Shown: positions 46,251-56,179, counted from the first letter of the stretch. The stretch: 64,000 nucleotides of DNA from Candidatus Eremiobacteria bacterium (GCA_963758295.1 CAVWUU010000004.1:32001-96000); one strand, 5' to 3'. Translations and numbers: made by a program. Notes: generated from the letters alone by a model not told the origin.

Positions 46251-47996
46251 ATGCGACGTAATCTTTCCGGGCCGAGCGCCCTGCTTGCCCTGACGCTACT
46301 GCTTTCCGCGTGCGGTGGCGGCGGTGGCGGCGGAACGCCCGCCACGTCGCCCCCTTCGCCCACCGTTACGGCGACACCGGGCGGCGGCACCGGCGGAAGC
46401 GGCGGCACGGGCGCGGCATTCACCTGCCCTAACTCAGCGACTGACGCGTCGGTTGGTACGGCGCCGGGCGGCGAGGCGACGACGACGGCGTTCCGCAGAA
46501 CCGCGAAGATTACGCCGGCAATGTTGCAGGCGCGTAGCTCGCTACTCGCCGTTACCTACGCCGCTTCCAATTCCCAGGCGGCGAGCGCCATCGAAGGAAA
46601 GGCCCGAGGACTTGGGGCCCAACCGCTGCGCACGTTGACGTTCGACCGAACCAATCTCGCGACGCGCGCGATTGCGGTTAACGCGACGAATCGCGATAGC
46701 ATCGCCGCATCATTGCGGTCGACGCCCGGCGTTATCGGCGTTGCGCCGGTGCAGCGTCGCTTTGCGATGAAGACGAACGCGTACATCACGAGCGACCCAT
46801 TTTTCAAGGGCAACAACACTCCGCCGCTTTACGAGCAAGACGGCGTGACGCCGGGACAATGGGACATGCACGTCGAGCAGTTGGAACACGCTTTTGCGTA
46901 TAGTCAGAGCAGTAACGGCAGCACTTTAGGCGCCAACCCCAACGCGCTTGGTTCTACGACCGTGAAGCTTGCCGTGATCGATACGGGAATGGACGTCACG
47001 CAGAAGGATCTTGCCGACGCGCACGTCGTTCGCACGCAGTGCTTCCTCACCGACACAACCGGGAATCAAAGCACCTCGTCTTTCGTTGCGGATCCCGACG
47101 GTCATGGGACGGACGTCACCGGCATTGCGGCCGCAAAGGTGGGTAACTCGTACGGATTCGCCGGCGACGGCGGCAACGTTTCGCTTCTGCTTTACCGCGT
47201 ATTTCCTAAGCCCGATGCGAGTTGCGGCACGACGACCGCGAATCCGCCCGCGGAATGCACGGCGGACTCATTCGACATTGCGACCGCGATTAACGATGCG
47301 GTCACCAACGGCGCCAACGTCATCAATTTGAGTCTCGGCGGCAACGCTTGCGTCAGCGGCCAAGACCCTGATTCGACGGAAGGTGCCGCAATCGCGAACG
47401 CGATCGCGCACAACGTTATCGTTGTCGCGGCCTCGGGTAACGGTGCGCCGGGGACGACGCCTGTCGGCGCGCCCGCGTGCGATCCCGGCGTCATTGCTGC
47501 CGGCGCGAGCGCGTATAACGACGGTCAACCGAATGCAAGCGGCTTTACATCGGCGACGCGCAAGGAGTACGTGACAAGCTATACCGAGTATGGCAGCGTG
47601 AATTCGCTGCATAGCGCTTCGTCATGGGGCATCGTTGCGCCGGGCGGAGACGGAATCGGCGACTCCGATGCAAACGATAATTTGCACTGGATCGAGAACA
47701 TCTGGACATCAACGCCTTGGGGCACCGCCGATGCCGGCAACTGCGGCACCGATCCATTCGGCGGCGCCGCTGACTGCCGGATAGAGATTGCCGGCACGTC
47801 GATGTCGACGCCGCACGTCGCAGGCGCGGCGGCGCTGATTCTTTCGGTTAATGCTGCGTCGTATGGAACGCCGGCAAAGATGAAAGCGCTGCTGTGCAGC
47901 ACCGCCGACGACATCGGCGATGCGCATCAAGGCTGCGGGCGGTTAAATATCTATCGGGCGATCGCTACCGCGCTGCACGATCCGACGTTGCCGTAG
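46251..47996 (+). CDS. Subtilisin-family (S8) lipoprotein protease
   Basis: Lipobox LSAC, poly-Gly/PT linker, VIDTG, HGTDVTG, AASGN, GTSMSTPHVAG; SD GGAGG. Confidence 0.92.
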   Translation: MRRNLSGPSALLALTLLLSACGGGGGGGTPATSPPSPTVTATPGGGTGGSGGTGAAFTCPNSATDASVGTAPGGEATTTAFRRTAKITPAMLQARSSLLAVTYAASNSQAASAIEGKARGLGAQPLRTLTFDRTNLATRAIAVNATNRDSIAASLRSTPGVIGVAPVQRRFAMKTNAYITSDPFFKGNNTPPLYEQDGVTPGQWDMHVEQLEHAFAYSQSSNGSTLGANPNALGSTTVKLAVIDTGMDVTQKDLADAHVVRTQCFLTDTTGNQSTSSFVADPDGHGTDVTGIAAAKVGNSYGFAGDGGNVSLLLYRVFPKPDASCGTTTANPPAECTADSFDIATAINDAVTNGANVINLSLGGNACVSGQDPDSTEGAAIANAIAHNVIVVAASGNGAPGTTPVGAPACDPGVIAAGASAYNDGQPNASGFTSATRKEYVTSYTEYGSVNSLHSASSWGIVAPGGDGIGDSDANDNLHWIENIWTSTPWGTADAGNCGTDPFGGAADCRIEIAGTSMSTPHVAGAAALILSVNAASYGTPAKMKALLCSTADDIGDAHQGCGRLNIYRAIATALHDPTLP

Positions 47997-49019
47997 TGTA
48001 GCCGATCGCCTCGAGCACGCGTTGGGTTTCGAGCGCCTCCTGAAATGTCGGGAGGTCGCTCGATCCCGTTTCAATCTGCTTCACAAATTCGTCGTAGAGT
48101 TCCATAAGCAGCGGCACGTTGGGGCTGATGCTTTCGAATTTTGAGTAAGGCGACGGCTTGCAGTCGAGCTCGTTTGTTTCTTCGTCGTCGATCGAGAAGA
48201 GCGTCATATCGGCAATCGTCGTGCCGCTCGCAACTGCGGTACGGTCTTCGCCATGGACGGCGAACGTAAATGACTCGATTGCGGCGGTGGCATCGCACGT
48301 GAGCCGGGCGACCAGACCGTCGCCGTAGTCCACCAGCGCAAATGCGCCGTCATCCACCGTGCTTTCGAACGCGCCGTGTTTATCGTGGCGTGTTCGGTTC
48401 GCCGTGCGAAGCAGGCCGATCGTTCGCTGCGGGGTTGCGTCCCACAGTCCAGGTGGCGCTGTCGATGATGTGGGACAATAACGCACCGGCCAGTCCGCCG
48501 CCCTTGTCTTTTTCGAACCACCAGCCGCGCGCGCGCGTGCCTTCGGCCCGAAGAAATTGCGAGAGGTGTGTTATTTCGATGTCCCGCAAAGGATCGAGAT
48601 GATGGTTCTCCACGAGCTGCTTCAAGGCGGCGCGTTGCGGGACGAACCGGAATTCGTGCGCCACGCCGCACGCCGTGCCGGCGCGCTCCGCCGCCGCGAC
48701 CATCTCTTGCGCTTGAGCGACGTTCAGCGCAAAAGGCTTCTCGCAGATGACGTGCTTCTTCACCTCGAGCGCTGCTAGGACGTCGTCGATGATGCGTGAA
48801 AGGCGGGGACGCGATTACTACCGCATCGAGCTCGCATCCGGCGAGCATTTCTTCGCACGATGTGAACGCGTGCGGAATCTTACGCTCGCGAGCTACTTCG
48901 GCGGCTGAGTTCGGCGAGGCAAGCGCCACCACGTCGAAACGCGGATGGGCGAGCAGTGCCGGCAGATGCGCTTTGACGCCGAAGCCGGCGCCGCTGATGC
49001 CGATGCGAAAAACGTTCAC
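47965..49019 (-). CDS. Gfo/Idh/MocA oxidoreductase (frameshifts about 48790 and 48430)
   Basis: IGISGAGFG...HLP, IASPP..H, HVICEKP, HEFRF, GGG.....SHIID. Confidence 0.88.
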
Positions 49020-50299
49020 AAAACCTCTTCCAGAATATCAAGCGCGCGATGGAGTTGCCGTTTGCTCACGACGAGCGGCGGAGTGATCGAAAGGACGTCG
49101 CCGGCCGGTCCGGCCTGCAACATGATGACGCCTTTGAGCAGCGCCCTCTTGACGGTGCGTTCCGCATGTTCGGCGTTGCGCAGTTGAAGGCCCCACATGA
49201 GTCCGCGCCCGCGTGCAGCCACGGCGTCCTTTCGCTGTTGCATCGACGCGAGGCGGCCGCCAAGCTCCTCGCCAAGCTCCCGGGCTCGTTGATAAGCTCC
49301 CGACTGTTGAAGTTCATCGATCGTGGCGAGGGCTGCGGCGCATCCCATCGGATTCCCGAGGTACGTGGACGTGTGGAGTGCTTCGCCGGCGGAGAGCGGC
49401 CACGCGTTCATGACCTCTTCACGAGCGACCGCCGCGCTAATCGGAAATCCCGCGCCCATCGCTTTGCCGATGCAAATGATGTCGGGCGTAACGCCTTCGT
49501 GCTCGCACGCAAACCAGTCACCGGTGCGTCCGAAGCCGGTATAGATCTCGTCGAAAATCAAAAGAATGCCGCGCTCGTCGCAAAACCGTCGCAAGCCCTC
49601 TAAGTAGCCGCGCGGCGGAACGACGCAGCCGCCCCGGCCCTGGATCGGCTCGATGATGACCGCCGCGATAGCTCGTCCGTCACCCACGCGCATGCGCAGC
49701 GTCGCAAGTGCCTGCTCTGCGTCGTCAACGCCGTCGCGCGGATAGTCCAAGAGCAAGGCCGCATCGGAAACCAACGGCGCGAACGGTTCGCTGAACTTTG
49801 GAATGCCGGAAACCGTGAGCGCGCCGAGCGAAAGGCCGTGATAGGCGCCGTTGTATGCGACGAACTTATGTTTCCCGTTGCAAGCACGGCCGTCTTGATC
49901 GCCGCTTCAACGGCTTCGGAGCCGGTCGTCGCGAGAAACGTCTTCGTCAAGCCGGCCGGCAGAATACCCGTGAGGCGTTGCAACAGTCGCGTTCGCACCT
50001 CGCTCGGATGAACGTCGCCCATGCCGTGCATTAACCGGCCGGCTTGTTCGGCGATGGCGGCGACGACGCGTTCGATTCGCGTGGCCTACGTTTGCGACCC
50101 CGAATGCCGACGTGAGATCGATATAGCGGTTCCCGTCTACGTCCACAATCGTAGAACCGGAAGCGGATTCCCAAAAGACCGGGAAATCTTCTGCGACGTA
50201 CGTGACGTTCCGCGATTCATATTGACGCAAAGGAGAGCGAAGCGCTGCGGTGCGCGCGCCCGGCACGTCGCCGTTAATTGACTCCAGTTCGTCGCTCAT
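49016..50299 (-). CDS. Class III PLP aminotransferase (GabT/ArgD-like; frameshifted)
   Basis: DVDGNRYID...FGV.NVGH, TGSEAVE, YHG, EPIQG.GG, DEIYTGFGRTG, GKAMG.G.P. Confidence 0.9.
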
Positions 50300-51516
50300 G
50301 ATTCTTTCGTGATCCATCGCACGAATTCGGCGATGCGCGGACGTCCGCCGTGCGTTTCACCAAGCGGCGGCCGCTGGAGCTCGCCGAAGCGCGTCAGGCG
50401 AGCGGCACCCATGTCGATCGCCATATTTACAATGTCCTCGCGCTCTGCGGCAATGGCTACCGCTTCGATTGGAAGACGATGCTGGCGCACATACGCGAGC
50501 GCATCGGCTGGACCATCGACTGCATGGATGACGAGCGTCCGCGGAAGAAAGGGCGGCGCTTCTTGGAGCGGTGCATCAAGCACCGCGAGATACGAGGCGC
50601 TTTCGTCGGAAAAGACGGCACCGGTTCCGGAGGCGGAGCGAAACGCCGCAAGGTTTCGGGTGCTCGCGATGCGCGCCGCCATGCCGGCCGTTCTCGCGCC
50701 GGCGGGAAATTCTACCGAAATGCGTTCGACTGCAGAGGCAACGGCTTCTGCGACGGCAGCCGGCTCGAGCGCGCCGCCGCGTTCAACGAACAACGCATGG
50801 AGCGAAAGACAGCCTTCGGTTTCGTAAAGCACGAGATCCCGCGCTGCACCGGCGGTTAAATCCTTTAGGTGGGCCGGGTTCAACGCCTCGCGACCCGCAT
50901 ACCCAATACTCGCCTTTGAACCGAACGGAATGAAACGTGTGGCGGGCCGGAGCGAGCTTTGCACTGCCGTCATGGTCTCGTCAGTGCCGAAAGCGACTAC
51001 GGCGTCGTAGTTGGAAAGGTCGACAGTGGGATCTCCGTGTGCCCAGACCGACGCGCGTGCCGCGTCACGAAACTCGTCCAACTCCTCGCCAAGAGACTCG
51101 AAGAAGGTTCGCACGAGATCGTCCTCACGATCTTTCACGACGACGTCGCACTTTGCGCAAAGCGCAAAAACGGCCGGAACGATCGCAACACCGATCGTAG
51201 TGCGGCTGGAAATTATGCACGCGCGCCCTAGCGGCGCCGCATGTGCGCGCAGCGTATCACCGCGCTCTACGAACCGGTCGAGCGCTTCGATCGTCCCAAG
51301 CTCGCTCTCGATCGTTTGAACCAGCGACGGCCGTGTGATGGAGAAGAAAAGTTGATCCAGCGCATACTCGACTACAGGCAGTGCGTACCCGGTGCGTTCG
51401 ACGATGCGGTCCAGCAAACGCACGCGCGGCGGAAAGTCCGCATCGCTCCAGCGCTCGGCGGCGTCGGCAATCGCCGCAACGATGCGCCGGGCCGGAACTC
51501 CGGCAAGAGCCGTCAT
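50296..51516 (-). CDS. luxC: LuxC-like acyl-thioester (acyl-CoA/acyl-protein) reductase
   Basis: ALDH-like; VVAFGTDET, FGSKAS, ARDLVLYETEGCLS with Cys at the LuxC catalytic position (cf. DQ.AC.S). Confidence 0.78.
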   Translation of the reverse strand: MTALAGVPARRIVAAIADAAERWSDADFPPRVRLLDRIVERTGYALPVVEYALDQLFFSITRPSLVQTIESELGTIEALDRFVERGDTLRAHAAPLGRACIISSRTTIGVAIVPAVFALCAKCDVVVKDREDDLVRTFFESLGEELDEFRDAARASVWAHGDPTVDLSNYDAVVAFGTDETMTAVQSSLRPATRFIPFGSKASIGYAGREALNPAHLKDLTAGAARDLVLYETEGCLSLHALFVERGGALEPAAVAEAVASAVERISVEFPAGARTAGMAARIASTRNLAAFRSASGTGAVFSDESASYLAVLDAPLQEAPPFLPRTLVIHAVDGPADALAYVRQHRLPIEAVAIAAEREDIVNMAIDMGAARLTRFGELQRPPLGETHGGRPRIAEFVRWITKES

Positions 51517-52609
51517 CGTCGCAATAACTCTTCGGCGTCGAGCGAGCAGCCTCGTAAAGACGCGCCTTGCTCCCGCCCGATGAGCACCAGACCATCGTCG
51601 AACTGTACGCCAAGGTCTTCGGTTTGGATGGCAACGCACGAGGAGCGGTTCGCAAGATCGACATGAACCAGCGCGCCGACCGTTCCGTTCGGAAGGCTTC
51701 GTCCATCCGCGCCGACGACGCGCGGACGCAGCCACGGTGGCGAGCCCTTATACCGGATTGCGCCATTGCGTTGCTGCGTGTCGTAATACTGTGACGTAAG
51801 TTCCGTCATGCCGTATTCGGCGGCGATGATGTCCTGCGGACAGGCAAAGCGTTCGCACAGCTCCGTGTAAAGGGCCGTTCGTTCTACGATGCGAGCCCGG
51901 CCCTTGAACCCGCCGGTTTCCATGATGCGCGAACCGGTGGGGAGCGCAATCGCCAAGTTCCGTTCGCGCAGCGCGTCCAACAGGTGGACGAGCGCAAACG
52001 CCGTCGATGCAATGCAGACCGGCTCATTTCGCGAGGCGGCATCTTGCGCGTCGGCGATGAACGCGTTACTGAAGATCTCGTCGTCTTGCACGAACCAGCC
52101 GGTATTGCCGTCGCCGCGCTTCGCCGAGACCATTGCCATCATGTACCCAAGCGATGACTGCGGGCGGTTCGCCGGATTTGGGACGAGATTCAAATAGCGA
52201 AGGCGCAAACCGTCGGAAAGCATGAAACGATCGAATCCCGCAAGCAATGCCGCATCGTATAATGCCGTCGTCTCCATGTAGTGCCGGCCCCCGACCCCCT
52301 GCGTCGTGCCGCTCGTTTCAAAGGAAAGTGCCGCATGCGAAACGTCGAACGTTGCGAGCTGCGCCTCCTTGTACGCGTCGGTGGGGACGGCCGGAATATC
52401 GTGCCAACTCTTGGGCAGCGACACCGCGGAATAGCCGAAGCTCCCGCGTAGCGCGAGTACGGTTCGTTGTACCGGATCTGATAGGCAAAGACTCGCAGCG
52501 CAAGATCTTCGAACTCGGCTTCTTCGAGCGCGCGGCCCGTGCGGTGCCATCGTTCGATGATTTGCAGGATCTCCGCGTCGAGCGCGCGCGACTCGGATGC
52601 GTAGGTCAC
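51513..52609 (-). CDS. luxE: LuxE-like acyl-protein synthetase (frameshift about 52445)
   Basis: F.YQ...N.PY..Y, IP.VP...K, FETSGTT, ETGGFKG, EYGMTELTSQ, DLAN..S...IQTEDLG, GR.....RGCSL. Confidence 0.88.
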
Positions 52610-53081
52610 CGGCGCCGGCTCGTGATGATTCCGGAGTTCAGCCCCGTCGTAGCAAGACCGCCGTTGAAGCGAGCGCTTTCGACTTTCATGCAACGGTCGA
52701 CGACCACGTCGAGCCCGGCCGCGTCGGCAAGGCGAATCGCCTCTTCGTTGATGACGCCGTACTGAAACCAGATGGCTTTAGCGCCGACGGCAATGGACTC
52801 TTGAACGAGCGGCACCACTTCGCTCGGCTTGCGGAACACGTCAACGATGTCCGGTGCTCCGCGTTCGGCCGCATAAGCCGTGAGTGACGGATACGCTGGG
52901 ATTGCCGTCGATAGCTGGAGATCGTCGGATTGATCGCCGCGATTTCGAAATGTCCTTGCGTTCGCAGATAAGAGAAAACCGTGTAACTCGGACGCAATGG
53001 ATTGTTCGAAGCGCCGACGATGGCGACAGCGTGCGATCGATCGAGCAGCGCGCGGCGTTGCGACGGCGTTTCAAGGATCAT
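52606..53081 (-). CDS. CoA-binding protein (YccU-like; frameshifted)
   Basis: VAIVGASNNP.RPS..V..YL, DIVDVFRKP, IWFQ.G, VVDRCMKVE. Confidence 0.88.
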
Positions 53082-54346
53082 GACGCACTCCCGACGGGCT
53101 CGCGCGGCTTGGGAGCGTTGCAGCGCGCTATCGAGATCCCACAGCAAATCGTCTACGTCTTCCAGCCCGACCGAAAGACGAACCGCTTCGGGCGCGACGC
53201 CGGCTTTGGTCATTTCATCGTCGTTCAAGCTGCGAATGCGTCGTGGAGGCGGGATGAATCACGAGCGACTTCGTGTCGCCGACGTTGGCGAGATGCGTCC
53301 ATAATTCGAGTGCGTCGATGAACCGGCGTCCGGCTTCGCGGCCGCCGCGAATGCCGAAGGTGAAAATCGAGCCAAGTTCCGGCGCACGAACCCAGGCGAC
53401 TTCGGGCCGCTGTTCGAGGTGTTCGGCGACGAGCGCGCGCGTTGCGCACGTGCGCGTCCATTCGTACCGGCAATGTTTCGAGACCCGAGCAATAGAAGCC
53501 AGGCGTCCATCGGCGACATCTGCGCGCCGACGTCGCGCAGCACTTCCGCGCGCGCACGCATCAGGAACGCGTACTCGCCGAAGGTTTCGGTGAAGATTTT
53601 CTGGTGATATCCGGGGCTGGGTTGGAGAGCAACGGAAACTTGCCGCTTCCCACATGGAAACTTGCCCGAGTCGATCAGCACGCCGCCGATCGTGGTGCCG
53701 TGGCCGCTGATGAATTTCGTAGCGGAATGTAAGACCAAGTCGGCGCCGCATTCGATCGGCCGGCAGAGAGTACGGTGATGCGAACGTGTTATCGACGACG
53801 AGCGGAATGTCGGCGTCGTGCGCGATCTCGCGCCAGTTCGGCGAGATCGGCAATGCGCGCCGGACGGATTGCCGATCGTCTCGGCAAAAAGCAACTTCGT
53901 ATTCGGCGTAATCGCTGGGGCGCAGCGCTTCGTGGTCGTCGACCGGCGCGAACGTCGTGCCGATCCCCATGCGCTTCATCGTGACCGTGAACTGCGTGAC
54001 CGTTCCGCCGTAGACGTTCTGCGAGCTGACAATATGATCGCCGGTTCTGCGCGAGCGCGAGTACCGCGCAGAGCTGCGCGGCGAGACCGCTCGAGAACGC
54101 TATCGCGCCGAGCCCGCCTTCCAAGCTCGCCATCCGCTCTTCGAAGGCCGCCACCGTCGGATTGCTGATGCGGCTGTAGATGTGGCCGTAGCTGCGCAAT
54201 TGGAACAGTTCCGCAGCCTGCTCGGTTGACCCAAAGACATAGGCAGCGGTTTGGTGGATCGGCATGACGCGCGAACCCGTCGTCGGGTCCGGCGGCGTCC
54301 CTGCATGTATTGCTCGCGTGGAAAATCCAAATGCTCGGTCCTGCAT
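53078..54346 (-). CDS. metY: O-acetylhomoserine sulfhydrylase (frameshifted)
   Basis: PIHQT..YVF, YSRISNPT, ETIGNP, VVDNTF, HSATKFI.GHG, HLANVGDTKSLVIHPASTTH, RLSVGLE. Confidence 0.92.
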
Positions 54347-54381: not shown

Positions 54382-55667
54382 ATGGGGATGACACTCACCG
54401 AGAAGATTCTTGCTCGCCACGCCGGCCTCGACCGCGTGGAACCGGGCCAGATCATTAACGCCAACGTCGATCTCGTTCTTGCCAACGAGCTTTCCGCTGC
54501 GGTCGCCATCGGCGTGATGCGCGGCATGAAAGGCGCGAGCAAAGTCTTCGACAAGGAGAAAATCGCGCTCGTCGAAGACCATTTCGTTCCTGCGAAGGAC
54601 GCGCAGTCGGCGAAGCTTGCGAAGTTGATGAAAGACTTCGCTGCCGAGCAGCAGATCAAACATTTCTTTGACGTCGGCCGCGGCGGCATCGAGCACGTCG
54701 TGCTTCCTGAAGAAGGGCTCGTCGCGCCGGGCGAAGTGATCGTCGGCGGCGACTCGCACACGTGCACGTACGGCGCGTTCGGCGCGTTTGCAACCGGAAT
54801 GGGATCCACCGACATCGCGGCAGCCTTCGTGCTTGGCGAAGTGTGGCTCAAGGTCCGCGGCACGATCAAAATCGTCTACACCGGCACGCTGGGCAACATG
54901 GTTTACGCCAAGGACGTGATGCTTCGCACCGTCGGCGAGCTGGGTATCGACGGCGCGACGTATCGCGCGATCGAGTATCACGGATCTACCGTGGACAATC
55001 TTTCGATTACGGGCCGCATCACGATGGCGAACATGGCCATCGAAGCGGGCGCGAAGAACGGCATTTTCCATGCCGACGAAAAGGCGATCGCGTTCGTAAA
55101 AGAACGCACCGACCGTCCGTTCATTCTCGAACGCGCCGATGCCGACGCGGTCGTACGAGCGGGTTCTGAAGATCGACGTCGATTCGCTGGAACCGCAAGT
55201 CGCTTGTCCCCATACGCCGGACAACGTCCATCCGATCTCGCAGGTCACGCGCGACGATATCGCGGTCGACCAAGTCTTCATCGGGTCGTGCACTAACGGC
55301 TACATCGAAGACCTTCGCGTCGTAGCGAAGATTCTCGAGGGAAAGAAGATCTCGTCGAACCTGCGGGTCATCGTCAATCCCGGCTCTCAGAAAGTCTGGA
55401 TGCAGGCGGCGCAAGAAGGCATTCTCACGACGCTCGCGGCCGCGGGCTGCGCCGTGAACACGCCCGGGTGCGGCGCGTGTTTCGGCGGACACATGGGCAC
55501 GCTCGGCGACGGCGAACGCGCGATCTCGACGACGAATCGCAACTACGTCGGGCCGCATGGGTTCCCCGAAATCCGAAGTGTATCTGGCTTCGCCGGCAAC
55601 GTGCGCCGCGTCGGCGCTCACCGGAAAAATCACCGATCCCCGCGTCATGGAGTTGGCAGGCGTCTAG
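54382..55667 (+). CDS. leuC: 3-isopropylmalate dehydratase/homoaconitase-family large subunit, short type (frameshifted)
   Basis: [50 protein letters not shown]. Confidence 0.88.
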
Positions 55668-55668
55668 C

Positions 55669-56179
55669 ATGGAATCGAAACTGCACGGATACGTGCACAA
55701 ATATGGAAAGAACGTCGACACCGACGTCATCATTCCGGGCAAATATTGCAACATCATCGATCCCGCCGAGCTCGGAAAACACGCGCTCGAAGGCATCGAC
55801 CCCGAATACACGGCGCGAATGAAAGCCGGCGACATCATCGTCGCCGACACGAATTTCGGTTGCGGTTCGAGCCGCGAAGTCGCGCCGATTGCGATCAAGG
55901 GCTCCGGCACTTCGGCCGTTATCGCTAAAAGCTTCGCGCGTATTTTCTATCGCAATGCGCTGAACATCGGGCTGCCGATCTTCGAATCCGCTGAAGCCGT
56001 CGACGGCATCGAATCGGGCGACGAAATTGAACTCGAACCCGAAACCGGCGTCATTCGCAACCTCACCAAAGGGACGCAATATCAAAGCGGCGGAGTTTCC
56101 GCCGTTCATGCGCCAGCTCATCGATGCCGGCGGCCTCGTGCCTTACGTTGAACGCCGCTTAGCAGAAGCCAACCCATAA
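55669..56179 (+). CDS. leuD: Dehydratase small subunit (frameshift about 56090)
   Basis: NVDTDVIIPGKY, NFGCGSSRE.AP, SFARIFYRN..NIGLP, GGL. Confidence 0.88.

Follow-up and report, generated by a model that had tools for sequence, protein, structure and literature searches.

A predicted light-independent LuxE/LuxC-aminotransferase module conserved across the class Eremiobacteria

LuxE and LuxC also operate without light emission, as in the rfb cluster of Vibrio cholerae O1. In flagellin glycosylation islands the two enzymes are likewise used without light, according to the available parts of reports on Aeromonas (PMC7874193), Enterobacteriaceae (PMC4875605) and Dickeya (PMC7575072). In Photobacterium, the accessible portion of the structural account gives Lys238 and Arg355 of LuxE as the adenylation pair and Cys364 as the residue that carries the acyl group (PMC9157457). 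A LuxC-like reductase can also be coupled to a transaminase: in the assembly of the tail of tambjamine BE-18591, TabE and the omega-transaminase TabA make dodecylamine, and TamH is a fusion of a reductase with a transaminase, as far as the available text of that work describes (10.1101/2025.08.11.669332). Here we analyze a locus within a 64,000-nucleotide stretch of DNA from a soil-dwelling Candidatus Eremiobacteria bacterium (GCA_963758295.1 CAVWUU010000004.1:32001-96000; the whole stretch is called the window below, and the genome G000) in which luxE-like and luxC-like genes are followed by genes for a class III aminotransferase and a Gfo/Idh/MocA-family oxidoreductase. The reading that we favor, and hold to be probable, is that these four genes form a light-independent module that would convert an acid through an aldehyde into an amine, located downstream of a separate metY/CoA-binding gene pair in an error-rich assembly. 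This reading is based on the conservation of the locus, on fusions of LuxC with the aminotransferase, and on conserved catalytic residues. A preliminary description of the locus had proposed the same chemistry for a six-gene operon; light independence, synteny, the fusions and the catalytic residues all point towards that chemistry, while the six-gene unit and the amino-acid substrates proposed with it are not supported.

Pfam searches place six families on the minus strand between positions 47965 and 54346, namely Cys_Met_Meta_PP, CoA_binding_2, LuxE, LuxC, Aminotran_3 and GFO_IDH_MocA, which are the six co-oriented families originally named. The module itself comprises a LuxE-like acyl-protein synthetase, predicted to be an adenylating enzyme (51513..52609, with its GTG start inside a GTGA junction), a LuxC-like acyl-thioester reductase of 406 amino acids (50296..51516), a class III aminotransferase dependent on pyridoxal 5'-phosphate (PLP; 49016..50299) and the Gfo/Idh/MocA-family oxidoreductase (47965..49019), whose N- and C-terminal GFO_IDH_MocA domains are matched on three fragments. 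Upstream are metY, of the O-acetylhomoserine/O-acetylserine sulfhydrylase family (53078..54346, Cys_Met_Meta_PP on three fragments), and the gene for a small coenzyme A (CoA)-binding protein of the family CoA_binding_2 (PF13380; 52606..53081). The intact metY orthologue in G002, a genome of the same genus, scores 564.6 bits against TIGR01326 (cut-off 495.1), and the intact orthologue of the CoA-binding protein scores 123.4 bits against CoA_binding_2. All five of the 4-bp overlap motifs reported earlier are present in the DNA (ATGA at 53078-81, GTGA at 52606-09, ATGA at 51513-16, ATGA at 50296-99 and GTGA at 49016-19), as are both cysteine motifs, ...LRGCSLD at the end of LuxE and ETEGCLS in LuxC. 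The co-orientation with 4-bp overlaps is not due to chance, because the identical order recurs in relatives.

Close homologues of these proteins are encoded in genomes and loci named Candidatus Eremiobacterota or Vulcanimicrobiota (Baltobacteraceae, Lustribacter, Cybelea and others), and within the class we distinguish two families, f1 and f2, and a sister order, f3. When the window LuxC was used as a protein query, matches were obtained in 34 of 41 relatives, a tally that includes the unpublished genomes G004, G024 and G036. The apparent gaps in f3 in that search (5/11) are a sensitivity artefact: with the Pfam model, LuxC family (PF05893) genes are found in 71/71 f1, 1/1 f2 and 9/9 f3 genomes, G036 included, and thus in all 81 other genomes of the class that were sampled. 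We fetched 12 of the 34 matching genomes, selected for long contigs, and the order LuxE-LuxC-aminotransferase-Gfo-like is present in every one of them; metY and the CoA-binding gene are found upstream in nine and are missing there in three. A broader survey of LuxE loci in species-representative genomes covered the best 80 of 577 LuxE relatives. LuxC is encoded directly downstream of LuxE in 54 of these 80 loci, and all 42 of the 54 whose sequence extends 3.6 kb or more downstream carry all four genes. In f3 the order is LuxE-LuxC-aminotransferase-MFS_3 transporter, without Gfo, in 6/6 loci. The LuxE-LuxC-aminotransferase trio is therefore syntenic across the whole class, as the preliminary description would lead one to expect, and within the loci and genomes searched an aminotransferase partner occurs in this class only.

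The survey also shows where the locus comes apart. LuxC is not found downstream in 22 of the 80 LuxE loci, and in 21 of these LuxE converges on the CoA-binding gene and metY; four further loci are too short to judge. LuxC, the aminotransferase and Gfo are encoded together elsewhere in 5/5 genomes with a detached LuxE; four of these carry both parts on a single contig, at a distance of 190-214 kb. Because this trio stays together where LuxE is detached, it is the tightest unit, and LuxE co-occurs with it and is separable from it. The 45 loci with room upstream show both metY and the CoA-binding gene in 34 cases, the CoA-binding gene alone in six, and neither in five. The functional unit consists of the LuxE-like, LuxC-like, aminotransferase and Gfo genes, and metY with the CoA-binding gene is a separate neighboring pair. 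The original view of all six as one unit cannot be kept: metY and the CoA-binding gene travel as a pair, and LuxE can lie about 200 kb from LuxC, the aminotransferase and Gfo.

Several other arrangements were observed around these genes. An insert of 1.35-1.45 kb separates LuxE and LuxC in four of the 54 loci, and in L029 it encodes a secreted protein on the opposite strand. This DUF1565-type secreted protein with a Ser/Pro/Thr-rich tail (L029:8144-9382, minus strand; L113:6993-8321, minus strand) is encoded on the opposite strand between LuxE and LuxC or, at loci with LuxE elsewhere, immediately upstream of LuxC, and it marks a recurrent LuxE/LuxC breakpoint. In other classes of the phylum a LuxC family match is present in 38/69 genomes. 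Three loci there (L136:6309-8993, L138:6126-8765 and L139:6108-8792) encode LuxC fused to a PaaK-like AMP-binding ligase in proteins of 879-894 amino acids; the LuxC domain scores in the canonical range (about 300-330 bits), LuxE precedes the fusion in two of the three, and no aminotransferase is present. They represent a further LuxC system without a luciferase. Plasmids of Pantoea, Azospirillum and Lactiplantibacillus encode LuxE and LuxC followed by a short-chain dehydrogenase/reductase (SDR) family oxidoreductase (3/3 regions read, of 27 matches); the LuxE is annotated there as "long-chain fatty acid--CoA ligase" or "acyl-CoA synthetase" and the LuxC as "acyl-CoA reductase". Luciferase-free LuxE-LuxC pairs are thus common, and their aldehyde-processing partners vary. 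Six loci in metagenome-assembled genomes labelled Acidoferrum, Acidiferrales or Verrucomicrobiia (L028, L030, L031, L067, L079 and L088) encode LuxE 53-68% identical and show the Eremiobacterota gene order; those labels may be wrong.

The LuxE-like protein belongs to the LuxE family (PF04443), where the cut-off is 24.9: the window fragment scores 36.7 bits and the G002 orthologue 41.7 bits. A profile of 12 orthologues matches LuxE in PDB entry 7xc6 (7xc6_E) at 6e-26, pairing GGFK with GGWK and RGCSLD with KGCSLS; the arginine is aligned as well. The corresponding residues K236, R351 and C360 are invariant in 12/12 sequences, so the Lys, the Arg and the C-terminal Cys all align with Lys238, Arg355 and Cys364 of the Photobacterium enzyme. 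A search of the ESM Atlas returned generic LuxE clusters only.

The LuxC-like protein scores 145.1 bits on the LuxC family model (PF05893, cut-off 21). A single-sequence search of PDB found nothing; with a profile of 18 sequences as the query, 7xc6_A is matched at 1.9e-28. Cys236 is invariant in 18/18 sequences and, as the cysteine of an EGC motif, is aligned with that of QQAC in 7xc6_A. The catalytic cysteine of Photobacterium LuxC is named Cys296 in the accessible part of the structural paper (PMC9157457); the QQAC cysteine, at index 285 of the 477-residue chain, would be this residue if an 11-residue offset is assumed. The match spans residues 50-445 of the 477 in 7xc6_A and the LuxC-like protein ends three positions after it, so that it lacks about 45 N-terminal residues and the C-terminal segment. 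In Photobacterium, the same portion of that paper describes how this segment, contributed by the neighboring subunit, completes a hydrophobic L-shaped cleft of more than 40 A that holds the myristoyl group (PMC9157457). Since the cleft-closing segment is absent, the comparison suggests that the substrate is not a long fatty acyl chain.

For the aminotransferase, the largest window fragment scores 242.9 bits and the orthologue 355.2 bits on Aminotran_3 (PF00202). Its nearest solved relatives are putrescine, gamma-aminobutyric acid (GABA) and acetylornithine/acetyl-lysine aminotransferases (1e-73 to 1e-68), and no NCBIfam model reached its cut-off. We aligned 13 module aminotransferases (nine from f1 and f2, four from f3) with GabT, PatA and ArgD of E. 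coli. The PLP-binding lysine (GabT Lys268) and Asp239, which presumably contacts the pyridine nitrogen, are invariant in all 16 sequences, and together with the Pfam match they identify a class III aminotransferase. The substrate-binding positions differ. Position 141 is Arg in GabT and ArgD and Lys in PatA, and Leu in 13/13 module enzymes; position 211 is Glu in all three E. coli enzymes and Arg in 13/13 module enzymes; position 398 is Arg in all three E. coli enzymes and Ser, Ala, Thr or Gln in the module enzymes (Arg 0/13). We take Arg141 of GabT to hold the substrate carboxylate and Glu211 and Arg398 to act as a switch for the donor carboxylate. At these three positions the module enzyme does not have the make-up of a 2-oxoglutarate-dependent transaminase of the GABA/acetylornithine type; it should not recognize a GABA- or ornithine-like carboxylate, and the donor-binding arginine seems to have been relocated to the neighboring position 211.

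A search among longer proteins found LuxC and Aminotran_3 domains (PF05893 and PF00202) fused in six proteins of 818-892 amino acids. Three of them have differing linkers between the motifs ...FV.LIDLE.. and ..PG.RS.., which argues against simple read-through of the 4-bp overlap, and one fusion, P0131, is a single stop-free open frame of 922 codons in G064, a genome of the same family as that of the window. The fusion proteins share the residue pattern at positions 141, 211 and 398. Among the computational evidence, the fusion, a Rosetta-stone link, speaks most strongly for transfer of the LuxC-made aldehyde to the PLP enzyme.

Genes for light production were also sought in the whole genome, which is 82% complete by markers. 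No match to the LuxD family (PF02273) was found at this completeness, and the sole Bac_luciferase-family (PF00296) gene lies on another contig and encodes an oxidoreductase of the MsnO8/YhbW type. It scores 444.7 bits on its own model, 27.9 on that for luciferase alpha (cut-off 600) and 26.1 on that for luciferase beta (cut-off 500). With luxA, luxB and luxD not found, the locus is not a lux operon as far as the sequenced part of the genome goes, in agreement with the luciferase-free character first ascribed to it.

A route may be proposed from these features. The LuxE-like enzyme would adenylate a carboxylic acid and load it as a thioester onto its own C-terminal cysteine (RGCSLD); the acyl group would pass to Cys236 of the LuxC-like enzyme and be reduced there by NAD(P)H to a free aldehyde, which the PLP enzyme would turn into a primary amine. 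The Gfo/Idh/MocA enzyme could then act on this molecule in one more redox step; in f3 its gene position is occupied by the MFS_3 transporter, which may export the product. The substrate acid is probably neutral or hydrophobic and uncharged, because the cleft-closing segment of LuxC is missing and the aminotransferase has Leu141; the same features speak against a C14 fatty acid held as in the lux system, and also against an amino acid or a dicarboxylic acid. The omega-amine of an amino acid such as glutamate or 2-aminoadipate, suggested at the outset as a product, becomes less likely because Leu replaces the substrate-carboxylate arginine of GabT and ArgD.

The role of Gfo is the least certain part of this model. 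The closest solved structure is 1,5-anhydro-D-fructose reductase (2glx, 1.8e-31), and both Pfam GFO_IDH_MocA domains are also found on the intact orthologue. We take a GxGxxG Rossmann domain, an EKP lysine and, in 1,5-anhydro-D-fructose reductase, an Asp-x3-His pair to be the features of this family. Ten sequences were aligned (eight from f1 and two from f2; L017 and L013 (truncated) were left out), and all eight f1 sequences retain the EKP lysine and His184. The fourth gene of the f2 loci (L022:11328-12245, L023:10652-11569) encodes a Gfo-like protein of 305 amino acids that lacks a 21-residue stretch and is perhaps no longer a dehydrogenase.

A number of observations weigh against the acid-to-amine module as proposed. 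The two f2 Gfo-like proteins have RVP or EVP in place of the EKP lysine, and all ten Gfo sequences have Ala where 2glx has Asp, which together make the redox role uncertain. By the equivalog models the first two enzymes are not true LuxE and LuxC: the LuxE-like protein scores 36 bits on NF052244 (long-chain-fatty-acid--protein ligase, cut-off 550), and the LuxC-like protein scores 41.8 bits on NF052251 (long-chain-fatty-acyl-CoA reductase, cut-off 750). The aminotransferase, which never has Arg at position 398 and has it at 211 instead, is perhaps no ordinary transaminase. LuxE is not always beside LuxC, being apart from it in 21 of 80 loci and separated by the opposite-strand insert in four more; five of the six genes in the window are unreadable without frame correction; and no metabolic gap that tracks the module was found among the families considered below.

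On its other sides the locus is bordered by two genes on the plus strand. leuC, encoding an aconitase-family large subunit (54382-55822), adjoins metY and is divergent from it, with the two start codons 35 bp apart. A subtilisin-like protease (46251-47996) is intact, has 581 amino acids and carries a lipoprotein-type signal (LSAC followed by a run of Gly); its 3' end overlaps the convergent 3' end of Gfo by about 30 bp, which leaves no space for a terminator between them. A search for a riboswitch or other RNA gave no Rfam match in the window, and scans for promoters and terminators gave results at chance level only.

To count frame breaks in the locus, the window DNA was aligned by frameshift-aware dynamic programming with intact proteins of the same genus (G002, locus L018); L027 served as a second reference, and the breaks fall at the same places with both. 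metY has 11 breaks against G002 and 10 against L027; with either reference there are two in the CoA-binding gene, one in LuxE (near 52445), none in LuxC, two in the aminotransferase gene (near 50074 and 49878) and two in Gfo (near 48788 and 48436). LuxC is the sole whole open reading frame of the six, and the others are split over two or three frames. The total of 17-18 single-base breaks in 6.4 kb, hitting five genes, replaces the one indel that was thought to need correction at the fifth junction, and because of these breaks the window DNA as it stands yields no uninterrupted six-gene operon. Sequencing or assembly error is likely the cause rather than decay. The same-genus orthologues are intact, one extra base accounts for 16 of the 18 breaks in the G002 alignment, and leuC, a gene of an essential pathway, is likewise broken, with two single-base breaks near 55153 and 55550. 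With the frames restored, no other gene of the six is as well conserved as metY and the CoA-binding gene, at 83% and 85% identity to L027 (63% for the unbroken LuxC). It is very unlikely, in our judgement, that the cluster in G000 consists of real, decaying pseudogenes, even though the sheer density of breaks, with 10-11 of them concentrated in about 950 bp of metY, would suit that explanation and the adjoining convergent protease has none in 1.4 kb. No read set spanned the breaks; one public soil run shared 8% of sampled words and contained short pieces of relatives, none across a break and none with a recorded indel. The absence of breaks in LuxC also speaks against decay, and the assembly is itself anomalous, being nearly contig-complete (6 contigs) yet 82% complete, a feature shared by two further few-contig genomes of the same genus at 61-63% completeness.

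Other chemistries have been considered for the same genes. The PLP enzyme might act on the LuxC-made aldehyde as an aminomutase, racemase or lyase, for example by converting an alpha-amino aldehyde into an aminoketone that Gfo would then reduce. Such an activity would fit the disappearance of both carboxylate arginines of GabT and ArgD, and class III racemases, epimerases and one lyase are among the clear relatives; glutamate-1-semialdehyde aminomutase also lacks the arginine at position 398. We nevertheless think it unlikely, as the best solved relatives are true transaminases, HemL is not among the best 25 NCBIfam matches, and the invariant Arg211, beside the would-be site of Arg398, could assume donor binding. 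An alternative that we regard as highly improbable is that Gfo reduces the LuxE/LuxC aldehyde to an alcohol while the aminotransferase aminates a ketone or other intermediate, much as happens in amino-sugar or cyclitol pathways. The plasmid LuxE-LuxC-SDR cassettes offer a precedent, and sugar or cyclitol hydroxyls are the usual targets of Gfo/Idh/MocA enzymes; yet it is the aminotransferase and not Gfo that is fused to LuxC, f3 retains LuxE, LuxC and the aminotransferase without Gfo, and the f2 Gfo-like protein has lost the EKP lysine. It also seems quite unlikely that the module replaces a standard amino-acid route running through a semialdehyde, for which we considered aspartate by way of aspartate semialdehyde to homoserine or diaminobutyrate, glutamate to ornithine, proline or 5-aminolevulinate, malonate to beta-alanine, and GABA to putrescine. 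The shared logic with ArgB/ArgC/ArgD and LysZ/LysY/LysJ, the adjoining metY in 34 of the 45 loci with upstream room and the position of putrescine aminotransferase as the nearest solved relative of the aminotransferase are in its favor, as are the lack of PanD beside a retained PanC in the class and the missing homoserine dehydrogenase of G011 and G020; Leu141 argues against amino-acid or dicarboxylate semialdehydes. The gene content of the genomes bears on each of these routes. The heme route (glutamate through glutamate-1-semialdehyde to 5-aminolevulinate) was rejected, HemA being present in 5/5 genomes, and semialdehyde dehydrogenases are also present in 5/5. There is no polyamine gap, with spermidine synthase and the agmatinase/arginase family each in 5/5. 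For beta-alanine, PanD is found in none of 31 and none of 91 genomes (0/90 when counted for the class), against PanC in 30/30 high-quality genomes and 5/5 of f3 (PanC was not found in G000, which is 82% complete); PanD is, however, missing in 150 of the 151 genomes sampled over the whole phylum, among them members of classes that lack the module, so that its pattern shows no complementarity and does not discriminate, and 5/5 genomes encode PLP decarboxylases potentially able to supply beta-alanine. The homoserine/methionine route was rejected as well: homoserine dehydrogenase is inconsistently present (3/5; in G000, G009 and G014, and not found in G011 and G020), and G011 retains the module without this enzyme, without a PF02784 decarboxylase (a family present in 25/31 genomes, with one or no copy each) and without metY nearby.

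Two side observations arise from this survey. With regard to beta-alanine, PanC is found in all 35 high-quality class genomes tested and PanD in 1/151 genomes of the phylum sample. The single-contig genomes G011 and G020, 97% and 92% complete, have no match to homoserine dehydrogenase (PF00742), and G011 also has none to the PF02784 decarboxylase family, which includes LysA; these gaps may be amino-acid auxotrophies within the family.

If the four genes act as the acid-to-amine module that we favor, a core metabolite or a component of the envelope is a more probable product than an occasional natural product: all class genomes sampled have the module, and it is sited among housekeeping genes. 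The class, almost uncultured, is plentiful in peat, permafrost and Antarctic soils, and since every genome sampled has kept the set, its product is probably important to these organisms. A bolder and rather doubtful possibility is a class-wide, essential route of primary metabolism found in Eremiobacteria only, in which LuxE and LuxC, at the expense of ATP and NADPH, would hand an aldehyde directly to a new PLP subclass marked by the shift of Arg from position 398 to 211, yielding a core amine without a known pathway. Such an amine could serve as the head group of an envelope lipid, as part of a cofactor or as an exported compound, and the LuxC-aminotransferase fusions would be self-contained acid-to-amine enzymes. 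The unusual active-site pattern could define a new specificity group of aminotransferases. Industrial conversion of acids to amines combines a large carboxylic acid reductase with an omega-transaminase; the same cascade has apparently been built in nature from a small LuxE/LuxC pair, even with the reductase and the transaminase fused. For genome annotation, the current labels "acyl-CoA reductase (bioluminescence)" and "GABA aminotransferase-like" are misleading.

The module can be placed among the known systems by its parts and by its layout. As in Photobacterium phosphoreum LuxC-LuxE (PDB 7XC6), to the extent that the available part of the source describes it (PMC9157457), an adenylating LuxE relative with an acyl-Cys motif and a Lys/Arg pair is encoded next to a LuxC relative with an active-site cysteine. 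The acyl-Cys motif is RGCSLD where Photobacterium LuxE has KGCxLS, luxA, luxB and luxD are lacking, and LuxC is followed by, or fused to, an aminotransferase. The plasmid cassettes are similar in that a luciferase-free pair precedes one aldehyde-processing enzyme, with LuxC 23-30% identical; their third gene is an SDR rather than an aminotransferase, and their LuxC is full length (482-493 amino acids). In the flagellin islands the available parts of the reports (PMC7874193, PMC4875605, PMC7575072) list an acyl carrier protein (ACP), FabG, a CoA ligase, glycosyltransferases and a sugar-type aminotransferase (VioA), none of which adjoins the module. The arginine and lysine routes through ArgB/ArgC/ArgD and LysZ/LysY/LysJ follow the same three-step chemistry and use an aminotransferase of the related ArgD/LysJ type; activation is there by a kinase, reduction is by a Semialdhyde_dh enzyme, and the aminotransferases retain the substrate-carboxylate arginine that is Leu in the module.

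The closest parallel in chemistry is the TabE/TabA pair, which likewise proceeds from thioester to aldehyde to primary amine and whose reductase, in the accessible text, groups with LuxC in a similarity network (10.1101/2025.08.11.669332). TamH also joins a reductase to a transaminase, as the module fusions do. In the tambjamine system, as the available portion presents it, ACP or CoA delivers the acyl group and an ATP-dependent LuxE is not involved, the genes belong to a secondary-metabolite cluster of Streptomyces, and the product is dodecylamine. Our literature search found no paper linking Eremiobacterota with these enzymes; a preprint on galactosyrin refers to lux as a reporter and has no bearing on the module. 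The claim that no characterized pathway has this layout accordingly stands for the LuxE-LuxC-aminotransferase arrangement within that search, and it does not extend to the underlying logic, which is known from TabE/TabA and TamH as far as their published description was accessible. The module is an apparently unreported layout of the already known conversion of an acid or thioester through an aldehyde to an amine.

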